DNA of 64,000 nt from a virus. Position 1 is the stretch's first letter. The number at the start of each line of letters is the position of its first letter. Positions 17,609 through 27,120 of this stretch are shown here, piece after piece. Location: IMG/VR virus record IMGVR_UViG_3300045943_000001, positions 1 to 64,000 of that record. One strand, 5' to 3'. The position numbers were made by a program, and so were the translations under genes. The notes under the pieces were generated by a model. It had not been told where the DNA came from. It saw only the letters and a program-made list of their open reading frames with translations, and searched no databases.

Positions 17609-19522
17609 ATGCTCGACCAACGTAACTCTTCTGACAACAACAACTCTGGTTCAAACAACTCAGGTAATAAATCAAACATGTCAAACAACCCGTTACTCGC
17701 CCTGCTGGGCACGCAGAACCTGATCTCCTCTACTAACCAGATCGCTGAAGTCAATGAAGTGATGAAAAACCTGGAAGAGACGATCGAGTCCCTGAACAAA
17801 AACACCGCGACTGATACCCAGAAACTGACTCTGCCAAAAGAAGTGCGCACCATCACTTCTGATATCTCTCCAAACCTGCCAGGTCTGACTCTGCACACCG
17901 TCATCGGTGCAACAGTCTACGTTATGCCAGTACTGTTCTACAAAGTAGGCATCACTGAAGTGACCGAATCGATCCACCTGCAAAACGAAGCTGCGGCGCG
18001 CGCAATCGCTAAACCTGCTTCTGGCTTCATGGATGCAGAACTGATTGAGAAAGTGAAAACTCAGTTCAGCTACGTTGATGGCAAACAGGTGAGCAAAGTG
18101 ATCATCCTGGCTCCGATCGTTCGTAACCTGGAACCGTACATCAAAAATCAGTTCTCTCCTGATGACATGATCGTGCAGGTACGCAACAGCATCCTGAAAG
18201 AGTGGTCAACCTCTCTGTGGAACATCGCTTCTCTGGAAGCAGCCAAAGAAGGTATCGAATTCCCGAACCCGTTCAAAGACGGTAAACTGTTCGGTAAAGA
18301 TGATGCGGCTGTGGCACGTATCGAACCAGTTAACAAACTGATCATCGACGGCGTACCAACTCCGTATAACCTGGCGGCTAAGATCTCTACCACCAACAAA
18401 AACAACACCCAGACCTCAAGCAGCACCCAGAGCCGTTCTGTTGCAACTGCACACATGACTGTTACTCTGGAAGCAATGTCTCAGAGCCAGTTCATGCAGA
18501 AGCGTGCACAACAGCCTGGTAACGTTGTAGGTCCACTGGTTCCCGTTGTTTCTACTGGTCTGACTGTTCCTGGCGAAACCCTGAACAACAACAGCTCTCT
18601 GCTGACAGCACTGCTGGGTCTGTACGCATCAATCGGTGCGAACAACATCAACTATCTGTCTGAAGCGTTCCGTGGCAAAGAAGTGGGTCACCGTGGTAAC
18701 ATCGGTAACTTCAACCACTATCTGAACCAGATGCTGGGTGCGAACTTCGGTACTGCGCAATACATCACTGACAAAAACATCACCAATGCCCAAACTGTTA
18801 ACCAGTGGCTGAGCACCTACATCGCTCCGCAAGCTGTTTACGTTCTGGACCTGTCGACGTTTACTCACGATGTTGCGAACTCCGATTTCTGGTGGTCACT
18901 GGCTGCTAAGCCTTCTGGTTCTACCTATCATCGCACACTGGTAACTCTGCTGGATGCGTTGTCTAAAGGTGAATTCAGCAAGCTGGCTCAGGCTAACGCT
19001 GCGAAAGGTCAAGCACGTAACCTGCGTACCGAATGGGCTCCAGGTGACGCTATCCTGAAAACCACCAACATCATCCTGCCGGCAGGTATCGCGATGGCTA
19101 AAGATGGTAAGTGGTTTGACCTGGCTGAAGTTGACGGCATGTTCCTGCGTCAGGATCAGTACTACGGTCAGAACGAACCAGCGATCAATGAGTATCAAGC
19201 TCTGGTCAACGGTTCTATGGGTGGCGATAACATCCGCGTTCGTCAGTACAACATCTATAACCGTTTGATGCAGCTGTTTGGCGCAAACGTAATTCTGGAT
19301 GGTTGGAACCGTCGCTTCATCTGGGAAAACAGCTTCTTCGCAACCTTCGCACAAGCAATGGCTGCGGCTGGTACTCTGTCTCTGTCTGGTTCTAATACTG
19401 CGACCATGTGGAGCATGAACACCGGTAACGATTACCTGAACTATGCTATTACTGCTCAGCTGACTCAGTCTGTACAGGCTGCTGGCTTCGGTGGCTTTAA
19501 CGGCACGTTCTCTCAGTACTAA
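17609..19522 (+). CDS. chmA: phage nuclear shell protein (chimallin) candidate
   Basis: 637 aa, in the size range of known chimallins. Disordered Asn/Ser-rich N terminus. Extreme host-optimal codon bias. Long AT-rich upstream region with multiple promoter-like boxes. Directly followed by the beta-prime N-terminal RNAP gene, as I recall for phiKZ gp54/gp55. Confidence 0.7.
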   Translation: MLDQRNSSDNNNSGSNNSGNKSNMSNNPLLALLGTQNLISSTNQIAEVNEVMKNLEETIESLNKNTATDTQKLTLPKEVRTITSDISPNLPGLTLHTVIGATVYVMPVLFYKVGITEVTESIHLQNEAAARAIAKPASGFMDAELIEKVKTQFSYVDGKQVSKVIILAPIVRNLEPYIKNQFSPDDMIVQVRNSILKEWSTSLWNIASLEAAKEGIEFPNPFKDGKLFGKDDAAVARIEPVNKLIIDGVPTPYNLAAKISTTNKNNTQTSSSTQSRSVATAHMTVTLEAMSQSQFMQKRAQQPGNVVGPLVPVVSTGLTVPGETLNNNSSLLTALLGLYASIGANNINYLSEAFRGKEVGHRGNIGNFNHYLNQMLGANFGTAQYITDKNITNAQTVNQWLSTYIAPQAVYVLDLSTFTHDVANSDFWWSLAAKPSGSTYHRTLVTLLDALSKGEFSKLAQANAAKGQARNLRTEWAPGDAILKTTNIILPAGIAMAKDGKWFDLAEVDGMFLRQDQYYGQNEPAINEYQALVNGSMGGDNIRVRQYNIYNRLMQLFGANVILDGWNRRFIWENSFFATFAQAMAAAGTLSLSGSNTATMWSMNTGNDYLNYAITAQLTQSVQAAGFGGFNGTFSQY

Positions 19523-19609: not shown

Positions 19610-21202
19610 ATGTCAAACACGATGGCGGACATTCTAAATAAGTATGCTGATGAACACATGGTTCCAAGCGTATTATTTAAAAGTATTATTGAGGCAAGTG
19701 GTGTTACACCGCGGGAAGATGATCCTCAGTTCTACACTCCCCTGTATCCAGATTTTGAAGACTTTGATATCAAACATGATTTATCGATTACTCCACCGAT
19801 TTATCTGAATGACTTTGACTTCAATATCGAAGAACATCGCGAAGCTATTACTGAGTTACTTCGTACTGAGTACGAAGGTAATAACTTTGATACCGTCGCA
19901 AGCTGTAACTGTAAAAAGTATCGCAGCAATATTTATATTGGTTCTGGCTTTACGTGTGATAACTGTGGTAGCGAAGTTGTTAAACCATTGGGTCAGCGTA
20001 TTGAAACCAAAGTGTGGTTGAGAACACCGGCGTATGTGTCAGGTTTCATTAACCCTGCAATGTGGGCGATCTTCTTCAGTAAGTTGAATACCAAATCACC
20101 AAAGGTTAATTTGGTTGAATATTGGATCAACCCTACTGTGCGAGAAGAGAAACGTTTTCGTGATCCTAACAACAATGCATTTAAGATCGCGGCTAAGATT
20201 GAAAGCTTCCGTGCAACTCTGGGTATTCAGTTTGGCTATAATAGCTTTATTGATAACCTGGATCTGATTGTGATGTCTGCCATTGAGCAGGATATTAGCA
20301 AAGTACTCGATTTGACGGAGAAGGATCGTGAAGACTTTGCGGCGTTCTGGAGAGAGTTCAAGACAAAGGCCGTCTTTAGCTATCTACCACTACCAAACAA
20401 AATTACCACTGTAGTAGAATCAGATCAACGTGACCGCTATGTGAATAAAGAGCAAACCGATCTGGATAAGATCTATTTCACATTGGCTGACACGTATACC
20501 ATCGACGATGTACGTGCGTCAGAAAACGAAGACCTCATGGGTAAAAACATGAAGCCTTTGGTTGATGCATTGATGGAAGTACAGAAGAACATTTTGTTCG
20601 GTAAGAAGGGCATGATTCGATATCATGCAGGCGCGGGTAAACTCCCAATGACCGGTCGTTCTATTATCACCGGTGAATCTGGCGTGTGTCGTTCTGACAC
20701 CATTGTGTTACCGTGGTTGTATGGTTTGACGTGTCTGGACAAACATCTGACTAACTGGTTATATCGTAAAGGATATACTCCACTGAAGGTTAAGGACATC
20801 ATCAAAACAGCGAATAACTATCGTCATCCGCTGATCGAAGAGTTCTATACCTGGATTGAAACCAACCGCTTTGCTATGGCAACCGCTGGCCGAAATCCGT
20901 CTATCCAGTATTTATCAGCTCGTGCATTCTTCGTTGAGTTCTCTCGAGATCTCGATGACAAATCTATCCGTATTCCTATCACCACTGTTAAAGAATATGG
21001 TGCGGACTTTGACGGCGATGCAATGTATGTGATCTTCATTCCGGACATGATGTCTAAGATTGAAGCATATAGTAGCTGGGGACACCATCAGATGTTAGAC
21101 CCAAACAAACTTTTCATGGTAAGTCGTTTCGGTACGCACACCAAGACCAACCTGTTGAACATTAACTCGTTGTTATTGAGCGAACCAATCGAAGAGGAAT
21201 AA
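19610..21202 (+). CDS. multisubunit RNAP beta-prime, N-terminal fragment (likely the non-virion RNAP)
   Basis: CxC-x14-CxxC Zn ribbon at 19904-19966. EYGADFDGDAMYV contains the catalytic (N)ADFDGD motif at 21005-21019. Confidence 0.85.
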   Translation: MSNTMADILNKYADEHMVPSVLFKSIIEASGVTPREDDPQFYTPLYPDFEDFDIKHDLSITPPIYLNDFDFNIEEHREAITELLRTEYEGNNFDTVASCNCKKYRSNIYIGSGFTCDNCGSEVVKPLGQRIETKVWLRTPAYVSGFINPAMWAIFFSKLNTKSPKVNLVEYWINPTVREEKRFRDPNNNAFKIAAKIESFRATLGIQFGYNSFIDNLDLIVMSAIEQDISKVLDLTEKDREDFAAFWREFKTKAVFSYLPLPNKITTVVESDQRDRYVNKEQTDLDKIYFTLADTYTIDDVRASENEDLMGKNMKPLVDALMEVQKNILFGKKGMIRYHAGAGKLPMTGRSIITGESGVCRSDTIVLPWLYGLTCLDKHLTNWLYRKGYTPLKVKDIIKTANNYRHPLIEEFYTWIETNRFAMATAGRNPSIQYLSARAFFVEFSRDLDDKSIRIPITTVKEYGADFDGDAMYVIFIPDMMSKIEAYSSWGHHQMLDPNKLFMVSRFGTHTKTNLLNINSLLLSEPIEEE

Positions 21203-21874: not shown

Positions 21875-21923
21875 GTAACCAGGGGATTCCCCTGGTTACC
21901 TTTTCTTCTTTATTTTTTTTTTG
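21875..21923 (+). terminator. intrinsic terminator with long T run
   Basis: Stem gtaaccagggg / cccctggttac, loop att, then cttttcttctttaTTTTTTTTTT. Confidence 0.8.
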
Positions 21924-21932
21924 GAGAAAATA

Positions 21933-22121
21933 ATGAAAAGTGTTATTAAAGGTCGCTCGCAAATTGCCGGGACAATTTCTATTAATAGAAAACGCATGGA
22001 CACCGCATTGGCTCAAGAACATATCCAAGTTCCATCTGGATTGACGCACGAAGAAAAACGAGAGTACATCCTCAAACACTCAGGAAAAAATAATGCCGAC
22101 GATACATCAGGACGAAAATAG
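21933..22121 (+). CDS. small hypothetical protein (62 aa)
   Basis: ATG preceded by ggagaaaataATG, just after the terminator and T-run. Confidence 0.5.
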   Translation: MKSVIKGRSQIAGTISINRKRMDTALAQEHIQVPSGLTHEEKREYILKHSGKNNADDTSGRK

Positions 22122-22815
22122 TCGTATCAGAACGGTGTCAATGGACCCTAATCAATACAAGGTCTATGACAAAGATGATAAGCGTATCGCCAAGGTTGAT
22201 TTTAATACCAATGGTTTGACTGAGGAACATCTTCTCTTAATTCTTAAAGATCGCTTTAAGAATGGAAAAGATCCGATAGGAAGTCACATAAGAGATTGTT
22301 TGGATGCTGCTCTCTTTGCTGTGAGTGCAGGAAAAATTAAAAGGGCTTCAAAACTTATGTCAAACCACGGTTATGCTGAATTGCATGTCGATTTAGCCAG
22401 CGGTACAAAACTGTATAAAGACATCGTGCCAGCATGCGAAGGGATCGAAGTTATTCCGGTTAATAAACTGCATGCGACCATCATGTACGATGAAAGAAAT
22501 CCTGACATTGTTCCTTCACTGTCTAACAAGGTCTACAAGGGCCAGATTGTGGATGTACAGATGTTGGGTAAGGTTGGTTCCAAATGGCGGTCTTGTGCCC
22601 TCATATTGGAATCAGCAGCTGTGACTGAGCGACACAAAGAACTGGTCAAGGAAGGATTTAAACATTCTTACGATGACCTCTTGCTCCACGTTTCCCTGGT
22701 ATACGGTACTGATTCAGAGATTGCTTTCCCCATCATTAAGCAACTCTTTGATGAAAAGAAACTACCAGAGTCCATTACCTTATGCGCAGAGACTTGGGAC
22801 AGTATTAAAGACTGA
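22093..22815 (+). CDS. two-domain protein with C-terminal 2H-phosphoesterase-like signature
   Basis: Two hydrophobic-flanked H-x-T/S motifs 72 residues apart: LHATIMY (22471-) and LHVSLVY (22687-). This is the hallmark of LigT / 2',5'- or cyclic-nucleotide phosphodiesterases. Confidence 0.6.
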   Translation: MPTIHQDENSRIRTVSMDPNQYKVYDKDDKRIAKVDFNTNGLTEEHLLLILKDRFKNGKDPIGSHIRDCLDAALFAVSAGKIKRASKLMSNHGYAELHVDLASGTKLYKDIVPACEGIEVIPVNKLHATIMYDERNPDIVPSLSNKVYKGQIVDVQMLGKVGSKWRSCALILESAAVTERHKELVKEGFKHSYDDLLLHVSLVYGTDSEIAFPIIKQLFDEKKLPESITLCAETWDSIKD

Positions 22816-22906: not shown

Positions 22907-23071
22907 ATGTTTAATTTCTTTAGTCCAGAAACTCAAGATGGTGTTGCTCTTGTCGCTGCTTTCATGGGTGGAGTTGCAGTAATGGTATTTGGTTATGCCG
23001 GGATTCGCGCAATCATGGGTGCCATTAAAGTACTGATTACTCCATCTCATCAGATGGCCAAGCGCAACTAA
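22907..23071 (+). CDS. small single-pass membrane protein (54 aa), absent from the ORF track
   Basis: MFNFFSPETQDGVALVAAFMGGVAVMVFGYAGIRAIMGAIKVLITPSHQMAKRN. gagagagg RBS. Promoter-like TATATTAC at 22846. Strong terminator at 23078-23112. Confidence 0.5.
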   Translation: MFNFFSPETQDGVALVAAFMGGVAVMVFGYAGIRAIMGAIKVLITPSHQMAKRN

Positions 23072-23077
23072 GATAAA

Positions 23078-23112
23078 CAGGATCTCCCTTAATTGGGAGA
23101 TCCTGGATCTTT
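23078..23112 (+). terminator. intrinsic terminator after the small membrane ORF
   Basis: Stem caggatctccc / gggagatcctg, loop ttaatt, then gatcttt. A T10 run follows at 23122-23131. Confidence 0.7.
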
Positions 23113-26337: not shown

Positions 26338-27120
26338 ATGTCTTTCCCTCAAGATCAGATCCAGCGTCGTCCGCAGACCATGTTCAACGACTTCCGTTAT
26401 CCGATGCCCACTTCGGATAAGCCAGTTGAAGGTGCCAAATATCCAGCACGCTGGACTTGGGAATGTGGCTTGAATGGTAACATCTATTTCAAAGTCAATG
26501 ACGGCGTTTGGGGTCAACAAGACAAGAACGCAAAAAGTAAAGAAGTTGAACTGTCTGTATTCGACCGCGGCGCTCTGTTTGGTTTGATTGAAGAAGCGAT
26601 TCGTAATCCTGACTTTACCAAATCTCAGTACCTGGTCAAGAAAACAACCTTCGGTCAGGGCGGTCGCATGAACGACCATCCATCCATCTTGGCGACCTTT
26701 ACGATCATTCGTGATGCCGAAGGTTGTATCAAAGTGGGGTACACCAAAGGCACCTATAAAGTGATGTTCCCGTTCACTTCTCCGTATGACTCAGTGATTT
26801 TGATGGCGGGTCCTGGTGGTGGCGAACCGGTTGAAAATCGTGGCCTGATGTCGCGCGTCTACGCTAAAGCATTTATCGATTTCTCCAGAGTTAAACTGGA
26901 CGATTACGAATTCACTAACTTCAAACCTCGTGAGAAGAAAGGTGAAGGTAATAACAGTGGTGGCGGCCGCGGGGGAAACAACTGGGGTGGAAACAGCAAC
27001 TCAGGCGGCAACCAGGGCGGCGGTTCAAACTGGAACGGAAATGGTGGTGGTAACTCAGGTGGCGGTCAGCAGACTCGTCAAACCTCTACCCCTGACTTCG
27101 ACGACGACATTGATTTTTAA
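26338..27120 (+). CDS. ssDNA-binding-like protein with Gly/Asn-rich linker and acidic SSB-type tip
   Basis: The C terminus is a G/N low-complexity stretch (26941-27066) ending PDFDDDIDF (27094-27117). I recall E. coli SSB ending ...DFDDDIPF. aaagga RBS, biased codons, terminator at 27134. Confidence 0.6.
   Translation: MSFPQDQIQRRPQTMFNDFRYPMPTSDKPVEGAKYPARWTWECGLNGNIYFKVNDGVWGQQDKNAKSKEVELSVFDRGALFGLIEEAIRNPDFTKSQYLVKKTTFGQGGRMNDHPSILATFTIIRDAEGCIKVGYTKGTYKVMFPFTSPYDSVILMAGPGGGEPVENRGLMSRVYAKAFIDFSRVKLDDYEFTNFKPREKKGEGNNSGGGRGGNNWGGNSNSGGNQGGGSNWNGNGGGNSGGGQQTRQTSTPDFDDDIDF
26941..27066 (+). repeat. coding low-complexity Gly/Asn tract
   Basis: GEGNNSGGGRGGNNWGGNSNSGGNQGGGSNWNGNGGGNSGGG, built from GGN/AAC-rich DNA. 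Confidence 0.85.

Follow-up and report, generated by a model that had tools for sequence, protein, structure and literature searches.

What kind of protein is encoded at positions 22,093 to 22,815 of this stretch of viral DNA, and what might it do for the phage that carries it? The stretch analyzed here, positions 1 to 64,000 of IMG/VR record IMGVR_UViG_3300045943_000001 (64,000 nucleotides; hereafter the window), contains at that site an open reading frame (ORF) which an earlier reading of the letters alone, the original prediction, had described as a two-domain protein with the histidine signature of the 2H phosphoesterases behind an N-terminal domain of unrecognized type. Both parts can now be assigned to families: the C-terminal part is an Acb1-family 2H phosphodiesterase (PDE) domain, and the N-terminal part is a reduced domain of the Tad1 (Thoeris anti-defense 1) kind. 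Tad1 is a phage sponge protein that sequesters glycocyclic ADP-ribose (gcADPR) and cyclic oligonucleotides. The best explanation, and in our judgment a probable one, is a two-domain anti-defense protein in which an Acb1-type cyclic-oligonucleotide phosphodiesterase would be served by a repurposed, Tad1-derived accessory domain.

Gene and Domain Structure

The ORF is complete and lies on the forward strand (22093..22815), with 240 amino acids (aa) and a stop codon. Translation confirms the two histidine motifs on which the original prediction was built, LHATIMY (His127, nt 22471) and LHVSLVY (His199, nt 22687), and their spacing of 72 residues. The proposed division into two domains also stands, but not the sizes given for them: the boundary is at approximately residue 88/89, so that the domains are of ~88 and ~152 aa rather than ~110 and ~120. 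In an AlphaFold2 model of the whole protein, made with 22 homologues (mean predicted local distance difference test score, pLDDT, 85.3), the two domains are separated by a low-confidence linker at residues 87–90. The Tad1-like domain (aa 1–88; 22093..22356, forward strand) is modeled as four beta-strands followed by two helices; the Acb1-like domain (aa 89–240; 22357..22812, forward strand) begins with Met89.

A search of 5.8 billion proteins yielded 32 homologues, all of them with the Pfam Acb1 domain, PF23474. Sixteen are full-length (224–245 aa), while the other 16 are ~150 aa long and start exactly at Met89. The full-length fused homologues make up 18 metagenomic clusters (238–245 aa), and PF23474 is found in every one.

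The start codon calls for comment. In the public Joint Genome Institute (JGI) gene call for an identical protein, translation begins at Met17, for a length of 224 aa. Met1 is favored here as the better start, because residues 1–16 are kept across all full-length homologues and make up the model's first beta-strands, and because there is an AGGA sequence 9 nt 5′ of the Met1 codon.

The Acb1-Type Domain

Acb1 is defined by a catalytic tetrad of two HxT motifs (H44, T46, H113, and T115), by the base-stacking residues Y12, W74, F107, and W147, together with E141 and a C-terminal lid (Hobbs et al., PMC9117128). In the window protein, the first catalytic motif, His127-Ala-Thr129 (22471..22479, forward strand), falls on H44-x-T46 of Acb1, and the second, His199-Val-Ser201 (22687..22695, forward strand), on H113-x-T115 of T4 Acb1 (H114/T116 in the numbering of the FBB1 protein). 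All four residues are unchanged in 22 homologues with identities down to 51%, and each motif opens a predicted strand in the model (residues 127–133 and 199–204). The fourth tetrad residue, serine here and threonine in Acb1, is a conservative change and is invariant in this subfamily. Three further aromatic residues, Y94, W165, and W235, are also invariant, and Y193 is nearly so (Phe in two sequences).

The earlier suggestion of an Acb1-like 2H phosphoesterase is supported by profile matches, alignment, and predicted structure. PF23474 matches residues 120–207 (E = 1.8e-11; 44.4 bits, where the gathering cutoff is 27 bits), and PHROG 755 matches residues 87–238 (E = 2e-20). Alignment to the T4 and FBB1 Acb1 proteins by hhalign (probability 96%, E = 3.4e-9) brings both histidine motifs into register: H127/T129 with H44/T46, and H199/S201 with the second HxT. 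A search of the family profile against the sequences of the Protein Data Bank (PDB) likewise finds FBB1 Acb1 (E = 3.8e-5), with the HxT and HxS on its catalytic motifs.

The comparison with known 2H structures that the original prediction had proposed was made with Foldseek, and the predicted fold is a 2H fold for which Acb1-type proteins are the best matches. All 32 of the best matches in the PDB are 2H enzymes: Acb1-type PDEs, plant cyclic phosphodiesterase (CPDase), Usb1, LigT, CNPase, ASCC1, and a poxvirus cyclic GMP-AMP (cGAMP) PDE. The first is a phosphodiesterase of Burkholderia phage BCSR5 (9Q2Y/9Q2G; E = 5.7e-8, template modeling score, TM, 0.71), and FBB1 Acb1 (7T26/7T27) is at E = 8.8e-6; plant CPDase, Usb1, LigT, and CNPase rank lower (E ≥ 2e-3), the LigT structures at E ≥ 1.3e-2. 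In the BFVD collection, jumbo-phage proteins named Acb1 by UniProt match the model at TM up to 0.94. Alignment to the Acb1 structures also lends indirect support to the placement of the two histidines opposite each other across a cleft that would be expected of a 2H enzyme.

By sequence and modeled structure, then, the C-terminal domain is a member of the Acb1 family, in a distinct jumbo-phage subfamily. Like Acb1 (T4 gp57B; Erwinia phage FBB1, PDB 7T26/7T27), it has a 2H fold in which both His-x-Thr/Ser motifs line up. It also shares with Acb1 a similar size, ~150 aa; an aromatic residue six positions before the second histidine, Y193, which hhalign places on the base-stacking F107 of T4 Acb1; and a Trp near the C-terminus, W235, which falls on lid residue W147 of T4 Acb1 in a MAFFT alignment only. 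Y94 is in the first strand, as is Y12 of Acb1, and is a probable match by strand position, although outside the hhalign alignment. The two differ in the second motif (HxS rather than HxT) and in the C-terminal segment, which is otherwise arranged; in the window protein W235 is held in the sequence ETWDSIKD, and pLDDT falls below 50 at residues 237–240. Acb1 is moreover a single-domain monomer, while the window protein has the extra 88-aa N-terminal domain.

The closest structure, 2H PDE-9 of phage BCSR5 (9Q2G/9Q2Y), belongs with T4 Acb1 to the broad-spectrum “structural group 3,” but is only 15–16% identical to the window domain, and its lid is N-terminal, while the N-terminus of the 2H domain here is joined to another domain. 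With its Trp, the C-terminus of the window protein resembles the Acb1 lid, unlike the N-terminal lid of PDE-9.

The Tad1-Derived Domain

Taken alone, residues 1–88 have no match in Pfam or PHROG scans, and a single-sequence search of the PDB with the protein gave only weak Acb1 matches (E ~0.2) along with spurious ones to AlkB2. The domain can nevertheless be recognized, in two steps, through a family of free-standing relatives. Its profile drew in free-standing proteins of 107–192 aa without a Pfam domain. A hidden Markov model (HMM) of the free-standing jumbo-phage homologues only, from which the window sequence was excluded, scores the window domain at 38.8 bits, and gives 50 bits for a CmTad1 fragment and 47 for one of CbTad1. 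Against PDB sequences, the family profile finds CmTad1 (E = 1.3e-11), CbTad1 (E = 3.9e-11), and phiKZ gp184 (E = 2.9e-10).

An AlphaFold2 model of one free-standing homologue (P0048; core pLDDT ~90) points the same way. Its top 20 Foldseek matches in the PDB are all Tad1 (TM up to 0.72), among them CmTad1 8KBB/8KBC/8KBD (E = 3.9e-7, TM 0.71, 27% identity) and CbTad1 7UAV/7UAW/8SMD; the next match is at E = 0.06. Like Tad1 (CbTad1 7UAV, CmTad1 8KBB, phiKZ gp184 8Y6V), in which an N-terminal antiparallel beta-sheet is followed by two helices, the window domain is modeled with its elements in the order of four strands and then two helices, and it retains the Tad1 core fold and the NGLT, R54, and C69 motifs.

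Tad1 is present in other nucleus-forming jumbo phages as well, as phiKZ gp184, but there it is found at the C-terminus of a protein that is packaged in the capsid and injected, rather than at the N-terminus of an enzyme. An exhaustive HMMER search with the Tad1-like profile returned 3,671 representative clusters, 633 of them at E ≤ 1e-10, and some of the distant ones match Pfam Acb2_Tad1_hairpin. The same profile also matches several proteins of 250–300 aa (P0069, P0079, and P0114) with two Tad1-like stretches in tandem; together with the C-terminal location in phiKZ gp184, these indicate that Tad1 enters into several different modular arrangements. No independent Tad1-Acb1 fusion was found among the long proteins recovered by this search.

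In characterized Tad1 proteins, the pocket for gcADPR and cyclic dinucleotides includes F82, N92, R109, and R113 (CbTad1) and is closed by the beta4-alpha1 loop and a C-terminal lid (116–122); cyclic trinucleotides bind at a site with R88 and T95 (CmTad1); and the hexamer interface includes Q98, E99, M102, W103, and K106 (Li et al., 10.1101/2023.11.15.567273). The fate of these features in the window protein bears on function and is taken up below. Both domains are under purifying selection. Pairwise ratios of nonsynonymous to synonymous substitution rates (dN/dS) are 0.07–0.11 for the C-terminal domain and 0.09–0.25 for the N-terminal one; dS is near saturation, and the values are rough. Those for the N-terminal domain rule it out as a decaying remnant.

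Split, Fused, and Acb1-Only Forms of the Locus

The position of the locus is constant: it is downstream of genes for chimallin, the RNA polymerase beta′ subunit, and a phrog_3254 protein. In the window, these include chimallin, the phage nuclear shell protein (17609..19522, forward strand; phrog_4795, E = 2.5e-113), and a split RNA polymerase beta′-like subunit with a DFDGD catalytic motif (19610..21202, forward strand). Among sequenced phages, the closest is Erwinia phage AH04 (Meadowvirus), which can be grown on Erwinia billingiae; its nucleotide identity is 81%. From these neighbors and this relationship, the window is therefore that of a nucleus-forming, Chimalliviridae-type jumbo phage.

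At this position, three arrangements are found. The Tad1-like and Acb1-like genes are separate but adjacent in Pseudomonas phage OBP (OBP_060/061), Klebsiella phage N1M2 (39/40), Serratia phage Yubaba (02250/02260), and Aeromonas phage AerS_266, the last of which is already labeled “Anti-Thoeris” and “Anti-CBASS nuclease” in GenBank. They are fused in the window, in Erwinia phage AH04, in Kosakonia phage Kc263, and in the 18 metagenomic clusters. Pantoea phage Survivor has the Acb1-like gene only. The AH04 protein (gp67, “phosphoesterase,” QZA70550.1) is an orthologue of the window protein, 84% identical, and matches it in two-domain architecture and in synteny, but AH04 is without the small overlapping ORF that is found upstream in the window. 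When HMMs were run against all six frames, the 64-kb window showed no further gene of the Tad1-like or Acb1-like kind.

Some of the labels carried by these genes are misleading. N1M2_39 (L003 3848–4273) is called an “ABC transporter ATPase” because CbTad1 7UAV was deposited under that name; the label goes back to the molecule name of that entry, with no evidence of an ATPase. Similarly, “RNA ligase,” applied to Acb1-like genes, is inherited from an old name of T4 57B.

The split pairs share locus and gene order with the fused form, and their Acb1 domains are 51–57% identical to the window's. They differ in producing two polypeptides, of which the Tad1-like one is full-sized (107–192 aa) and keeps the lid and the equivalents of N92, R109, and R113. 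A single reading frame holds both genes in OBP, N1M2, and Yubaba, where one or two stop codons part them (coordinates in the locus extracts: L002 3896–4792 for OBP, L003 3848–4741 for N1M2, and L012 2369–3292 for Yubaba). Because the frame is shared, one small deletion or point change could interconvert the split and fused states. Readthrough of the stop codons in the split-gene phages was also considered, and is unlikely in OBP, where there are two in frame.

To judge from the sequences, a deletion that removed the Tad1 lid together with the stop codon would be the simplest path to fusion, since the split genes share a frame and it is exactly the Tad1 tail that is missing from the fused ones. 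The fused gene would thus have arisen from an adjacent pair of Tad1-like and Acb1-like genes, with the start of the Acb1-like gene kept as Met89.

This internal methionine raises the possibility that the locus makes two products, the 240-aa fusion and a free 152-aa Acb1 initiated at Met89 (22357–22359), an arrangement that would be compatible with the explanation offered above. Met89 is present in every homologue, fused or not, and corresponds exactly to the start of the stand-alone proteins; it is conserved in fused homologues down to 52% identity, though a fusion needs no Met there. There is also an AAGG sequence 11–12 nt 5′ of the Met89 codon in five lineages. This AAGG is, however, a consequence of the conserved K-K/R-V/A codons and stands farther from the Met89 codon than would be optimal; the internal start is a putative one, and Met89 may persist for structural reasons. 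On balance, a second product seems possible, if doubtful.

A Proposed Function and Its Alternatives

If the protein is an anti-defense enzyme, it would be expected to stay in the cytoplasm, where host cyclases produce their signals. By analogy with T4 and FBB1 Acb1, His127/Thr129 and His199/Ser201 would make up an acid-base tetrad, and this could cleave the 3′-5′ bonds of adenosine-containing cyclic di- and trinucleotides of the host without need of a metal. The linear products would no longer switch on effectors, and the cyclic oligonucleotide-based antiphage signaling system (CBASS), possibly along with type III CRISPR (clustered regularly interspaced short palindromic repeats) systems, would be disarmed. 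The Tad1-derived domain would in this case serve the enzyme, through oligomerization, stability, or substrate capture, and not as an independent sponge. Enzymatic activity and substrate range are predictions here, and so is any reading of what the N-terminal domain does or of when the gene is expressed.

Several observations weigh against this explanation. In the C-terminal domain, identity to T4 and FBB1 Acb1 is only 24–25%; at the position of the base-stacking W74, hhalign puts Gly159, and the invariant W165 comes six residues farther on; and Y12 and E141 have no securely aligned counterpart. The substrate range of viral 2H PDEs differs by structural group, two groups having cleaved none of 18 messengers (0/18) (Doherty et al., 10.1101/2025.08.21.671373), and because specificity varies in this way, activity on CBASS signals cannot be read from the fold.

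For the N-terminal domain, the Tad1 pocket residues were mapped onto the window sequence through HMM alignments. Deletions of 9 and 5 aa have taken out the beta4-alpha1 loop and the F82 region, respectively, and the C-terminal lid is gone as well; glycines (G63 and G80) stand at the N92 and R109 positions; and the equivalents of R88 and T95 at the cyclic-trinucleotide site are P61 and D68. Only one residue of the CbTad1 pocket remains, R84 as the equivalent of R113, and W103 of the hexamer interface is replaced by A76. Judged from its sequence, then, the domain is of Tad1 descent but does not have the ligand-binding features of characterized Tad1, and with pocket, loop, and lid features lost it is described here as Tad1-derived rather than as a Tad1 sponge; it is most likely no longer a sponge of the classical sort. 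Its role is the weakest step in the explanation, since the loss of the pocket argues against sponging without showing what might have replaced it.

One alternative is an enzyme tuned outside the classical CBASS set: to the cyclic tri-, tetra-, or hexaadenylate (cA3/cA4/cA6) of type III CRISPR, to an undescribed signal, or to a range narrowed so as to avoid the Panoptes decoy 2′3′-c-di-AMP. Nucleus-forming phages are still exposed to type III CRISPR, which targets RNA and signals by cyclic oligoadenylates (PMC13282480); the specificity of viral 2H PDEs varies strongly, and PDE-9, the best PDB match, discriminates against 2′3′-c-di-AMP (10.1101/2025.08.21.671373); and the W74 position and lid region are unlike those of T4 Acb1. 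T4 Acb1 itself already cleaves cA3, however (PMC9117128), so a shift of this kind would be a refinement of the proposed function rather than a true alternative to it. We consider it rather unlikely.

A second alternative is that both domains act on signals, the Tad1-like one still sponging gcADPR, cyclic dinucleotides, or something else while the enzyme degrades cyclic oligonucleotides. The purifying selection on the N-terminal domain and its retention of the Tad1 core and motifs would be expected in that case. The free-standing jumbo-phage relatives do keep the CbTad1 pocket residues N92, R109, and R113; Tad1 homologues vary widely in ligand spectrum (10.1101/2023.11.15.567273); and natural anti-signaling fusions that block two systems, such as Tad2-Acb4, are documented (10.1101/2025.07.12.664507). 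Against this are the deletions of loop, F82 region, and lid in the window protein, and the glycines found at two of the three remaining pocket positions. The R88/T95 and W103 equivalents are not conserved, and the cyclic-trinucleotide and hexamer-interface residues are not conserved in the free-standing jumbo-phage family either. Dual action therefore appears unlikely.

More elaborately, the fusion could be a functional sponge-to-enzyme device with a remodeled Tad1 domain, rather than two existing parts merely joined; with the conserved overlapping small ORF and the possible Met89 start, the locus would then give several anti-signaling products from one compact cassette. In one version, the Tad1-derived domain would multimerize the phosphodiesterase or hand captured cyclic oligonucleotides to it; in another, the loss of decoy or gcADPR binding would allow the phage to escape host systems that sense sponges, such as Panoptes. 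Such a device strikes us as decidedly improbable.

Least probable of all, and poorly supported, is a role in RNA-end metabolism or repair, as a 2′,3′-cyclic phosphodiesterase or LigT-like 2′-5′ ligase with no part in immune signaling: PHROG 755 and many GenBank records do say “RNA ligase,” another GenBank label is “RNA 2′,3′-cyclic phosphodiesterase,” and LigT, CPDase, and Usb1 are among the weaker Foldseek matches, but there is no LigT/2_5_RNA_ligase Pfam match even at E ≤ 10 where Acb1 alone matches, LigT-type structures are far below Acb1-type ones (E ≥ 1.3e-2 vs. 5.7e-8), the gene repeatedly adjoins or is fused to a Tad1 homologue, and “RNA ligase” is the historical name of T4 57B, that is, of Acb1 (PMC9117128). 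The original prediction had based its immune-signal reading in part on the lack of neighboring kinase or ligase genes for RNA repair. This is borne out among the neighboring genes, but the argument is superseded: the case is stronger now that the enzyme is seen to be fused to a domain derived from the Tad1 sponge. An Acb1-type phosphodiesterase with a repurposed accessory domain remains the explanation we prefer.

Relation to Known Anti-Defense Proteins

Parts of this picture are already known. The Acb1 assignment of the jumbo-phage homologues is made in Pfam and UniProt; GenBank has at least one record in which neighboring genes carry Tad1 and Acb1 annotations; and AH04_67, the orthologue, is catalogued among 75 phage 2H PDEs, where it was neither purified nor given an extra domain (10.1101/2025.08.21.671373). 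Fusions of one sponge to another have also been published, namely Tad2-Acb4, Tad2-Sequestin, and Sequestin-Acb4 (10.1101/2025.07.12.664507). Like the window protein, these combine two countermeasures to nucleotide signaling in one phage protein, but both of their parts are apparently intact, whereas here an eroded sponge-derived domain is joined to a hydrolytic enzyme. No description of a natural Tad1-Acb1 fusion, or of any sponge-nuclease fusion, was found in the literature searched. The new part is thus the sponge-nuclease fusion, both component domains being of known kinds.

Nucleus-forming jumbo phages shield their DNA from restriction enzymes and from DNA-targeting CRISPR. They can still be reached by defenses that rely on nucleotide signaling in the cytoplasm, including CBASS, Thoeris, and type III CRISPR, and a 2026 review gives the phiKZ Tad1 as the only anti-defense protein so far described in jumbo phages (PMC13282480). 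The results presented here indicate that an Acb1-type enzyme, adjoining or fused to a Tad1 homologue, is found at a fixed site throughout a group of phages that encode chimallin. The split, fused, and Acb1-only states make a comparative series for the fate of a sponge domain once an enzyme is attached to it, and the records now named “RNA ligase,” “ABC transporter ATPase,” “phosphoesterase,” or “hypothetical protein” merit re-annotation.

Neighboring Sequences

The fusion gene is preceded by a small ORF of 62 aa (21933..22121, forward strand), which overlaps it by 29 nt in the +1 frame and has a GGAG sequence 8 nt upstream. The encoded peptide has homologues at the N-terminus of many free-standing Tad1-like proteins, where the corresponding segment forms an in-frame extension and in some cases occurs as tandem repeats. 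It has a conserved core, RMxxALAxxxxxxPxGLTxExxRxxIL, and a dN/dS of ~0.3. The overlapping arrangement is also found in two diverged relatives (L004 and L007), with an overlap of 23 nt and without an A-run, and one of the two is represented in at least 24 contigs; the ORF is absent, however, from one other relative (L006) besides AH04.

One A fewer in the A6 run at 22084–22089 would join the two ORFs in frame, but an assembly error of 1 nt was rejected, because the same +1-frame overlap occurs without the A-run in the two diverged relatives. The sequence A AAA AAT was likewise rejected as a −1 slippery site: a −1 slip enters the wrong frame. A programmed +1 frameshift linking the 62-aa ORF to the fusion gene is possible, although nothing supports it.

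Directly 3′ of the fusion gene is a strongly hydrophobic ORF of 54 aa (MFNFFSPETQDGVALVAAFMGGVAVMVFGYAGIRAIMGAIKVL...; 22907..23071, forward strand), conserved in position. Small genes follow the Acb1-like gene also in AH04, OBP, N1M2, Yubaba, and Survivor, where the Survivor one is labeled “membrane protein.” Whether the 54-aa ORF belongs to the same cassette as the fusion gene is uncertain. The small ORF, the fusion gene, and the 54-aa ORF lie between two G+C-rich hairpins, each with an 11-bp stem. The one 5′ of the cassette is followed by a long T-run and is terminator-like (21875..21899, forward strand), and is conserved in AH04, L004, and L007; the one that closes it is palindromic (23078..23105). 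The two may delimit a separate transcription unit.

Further downstream, an SbcD-like nuclease is encoded. A 260-aa protein of phrog_3284, encoded at 26338–27120 (forward strand) in a position conserved in related jumbo phages, has a long glycine/asparagine-rich C-terminal tail (GGGRGGNNWGGNSNSGGNQGGGSNWNGNGGGNSGGG).

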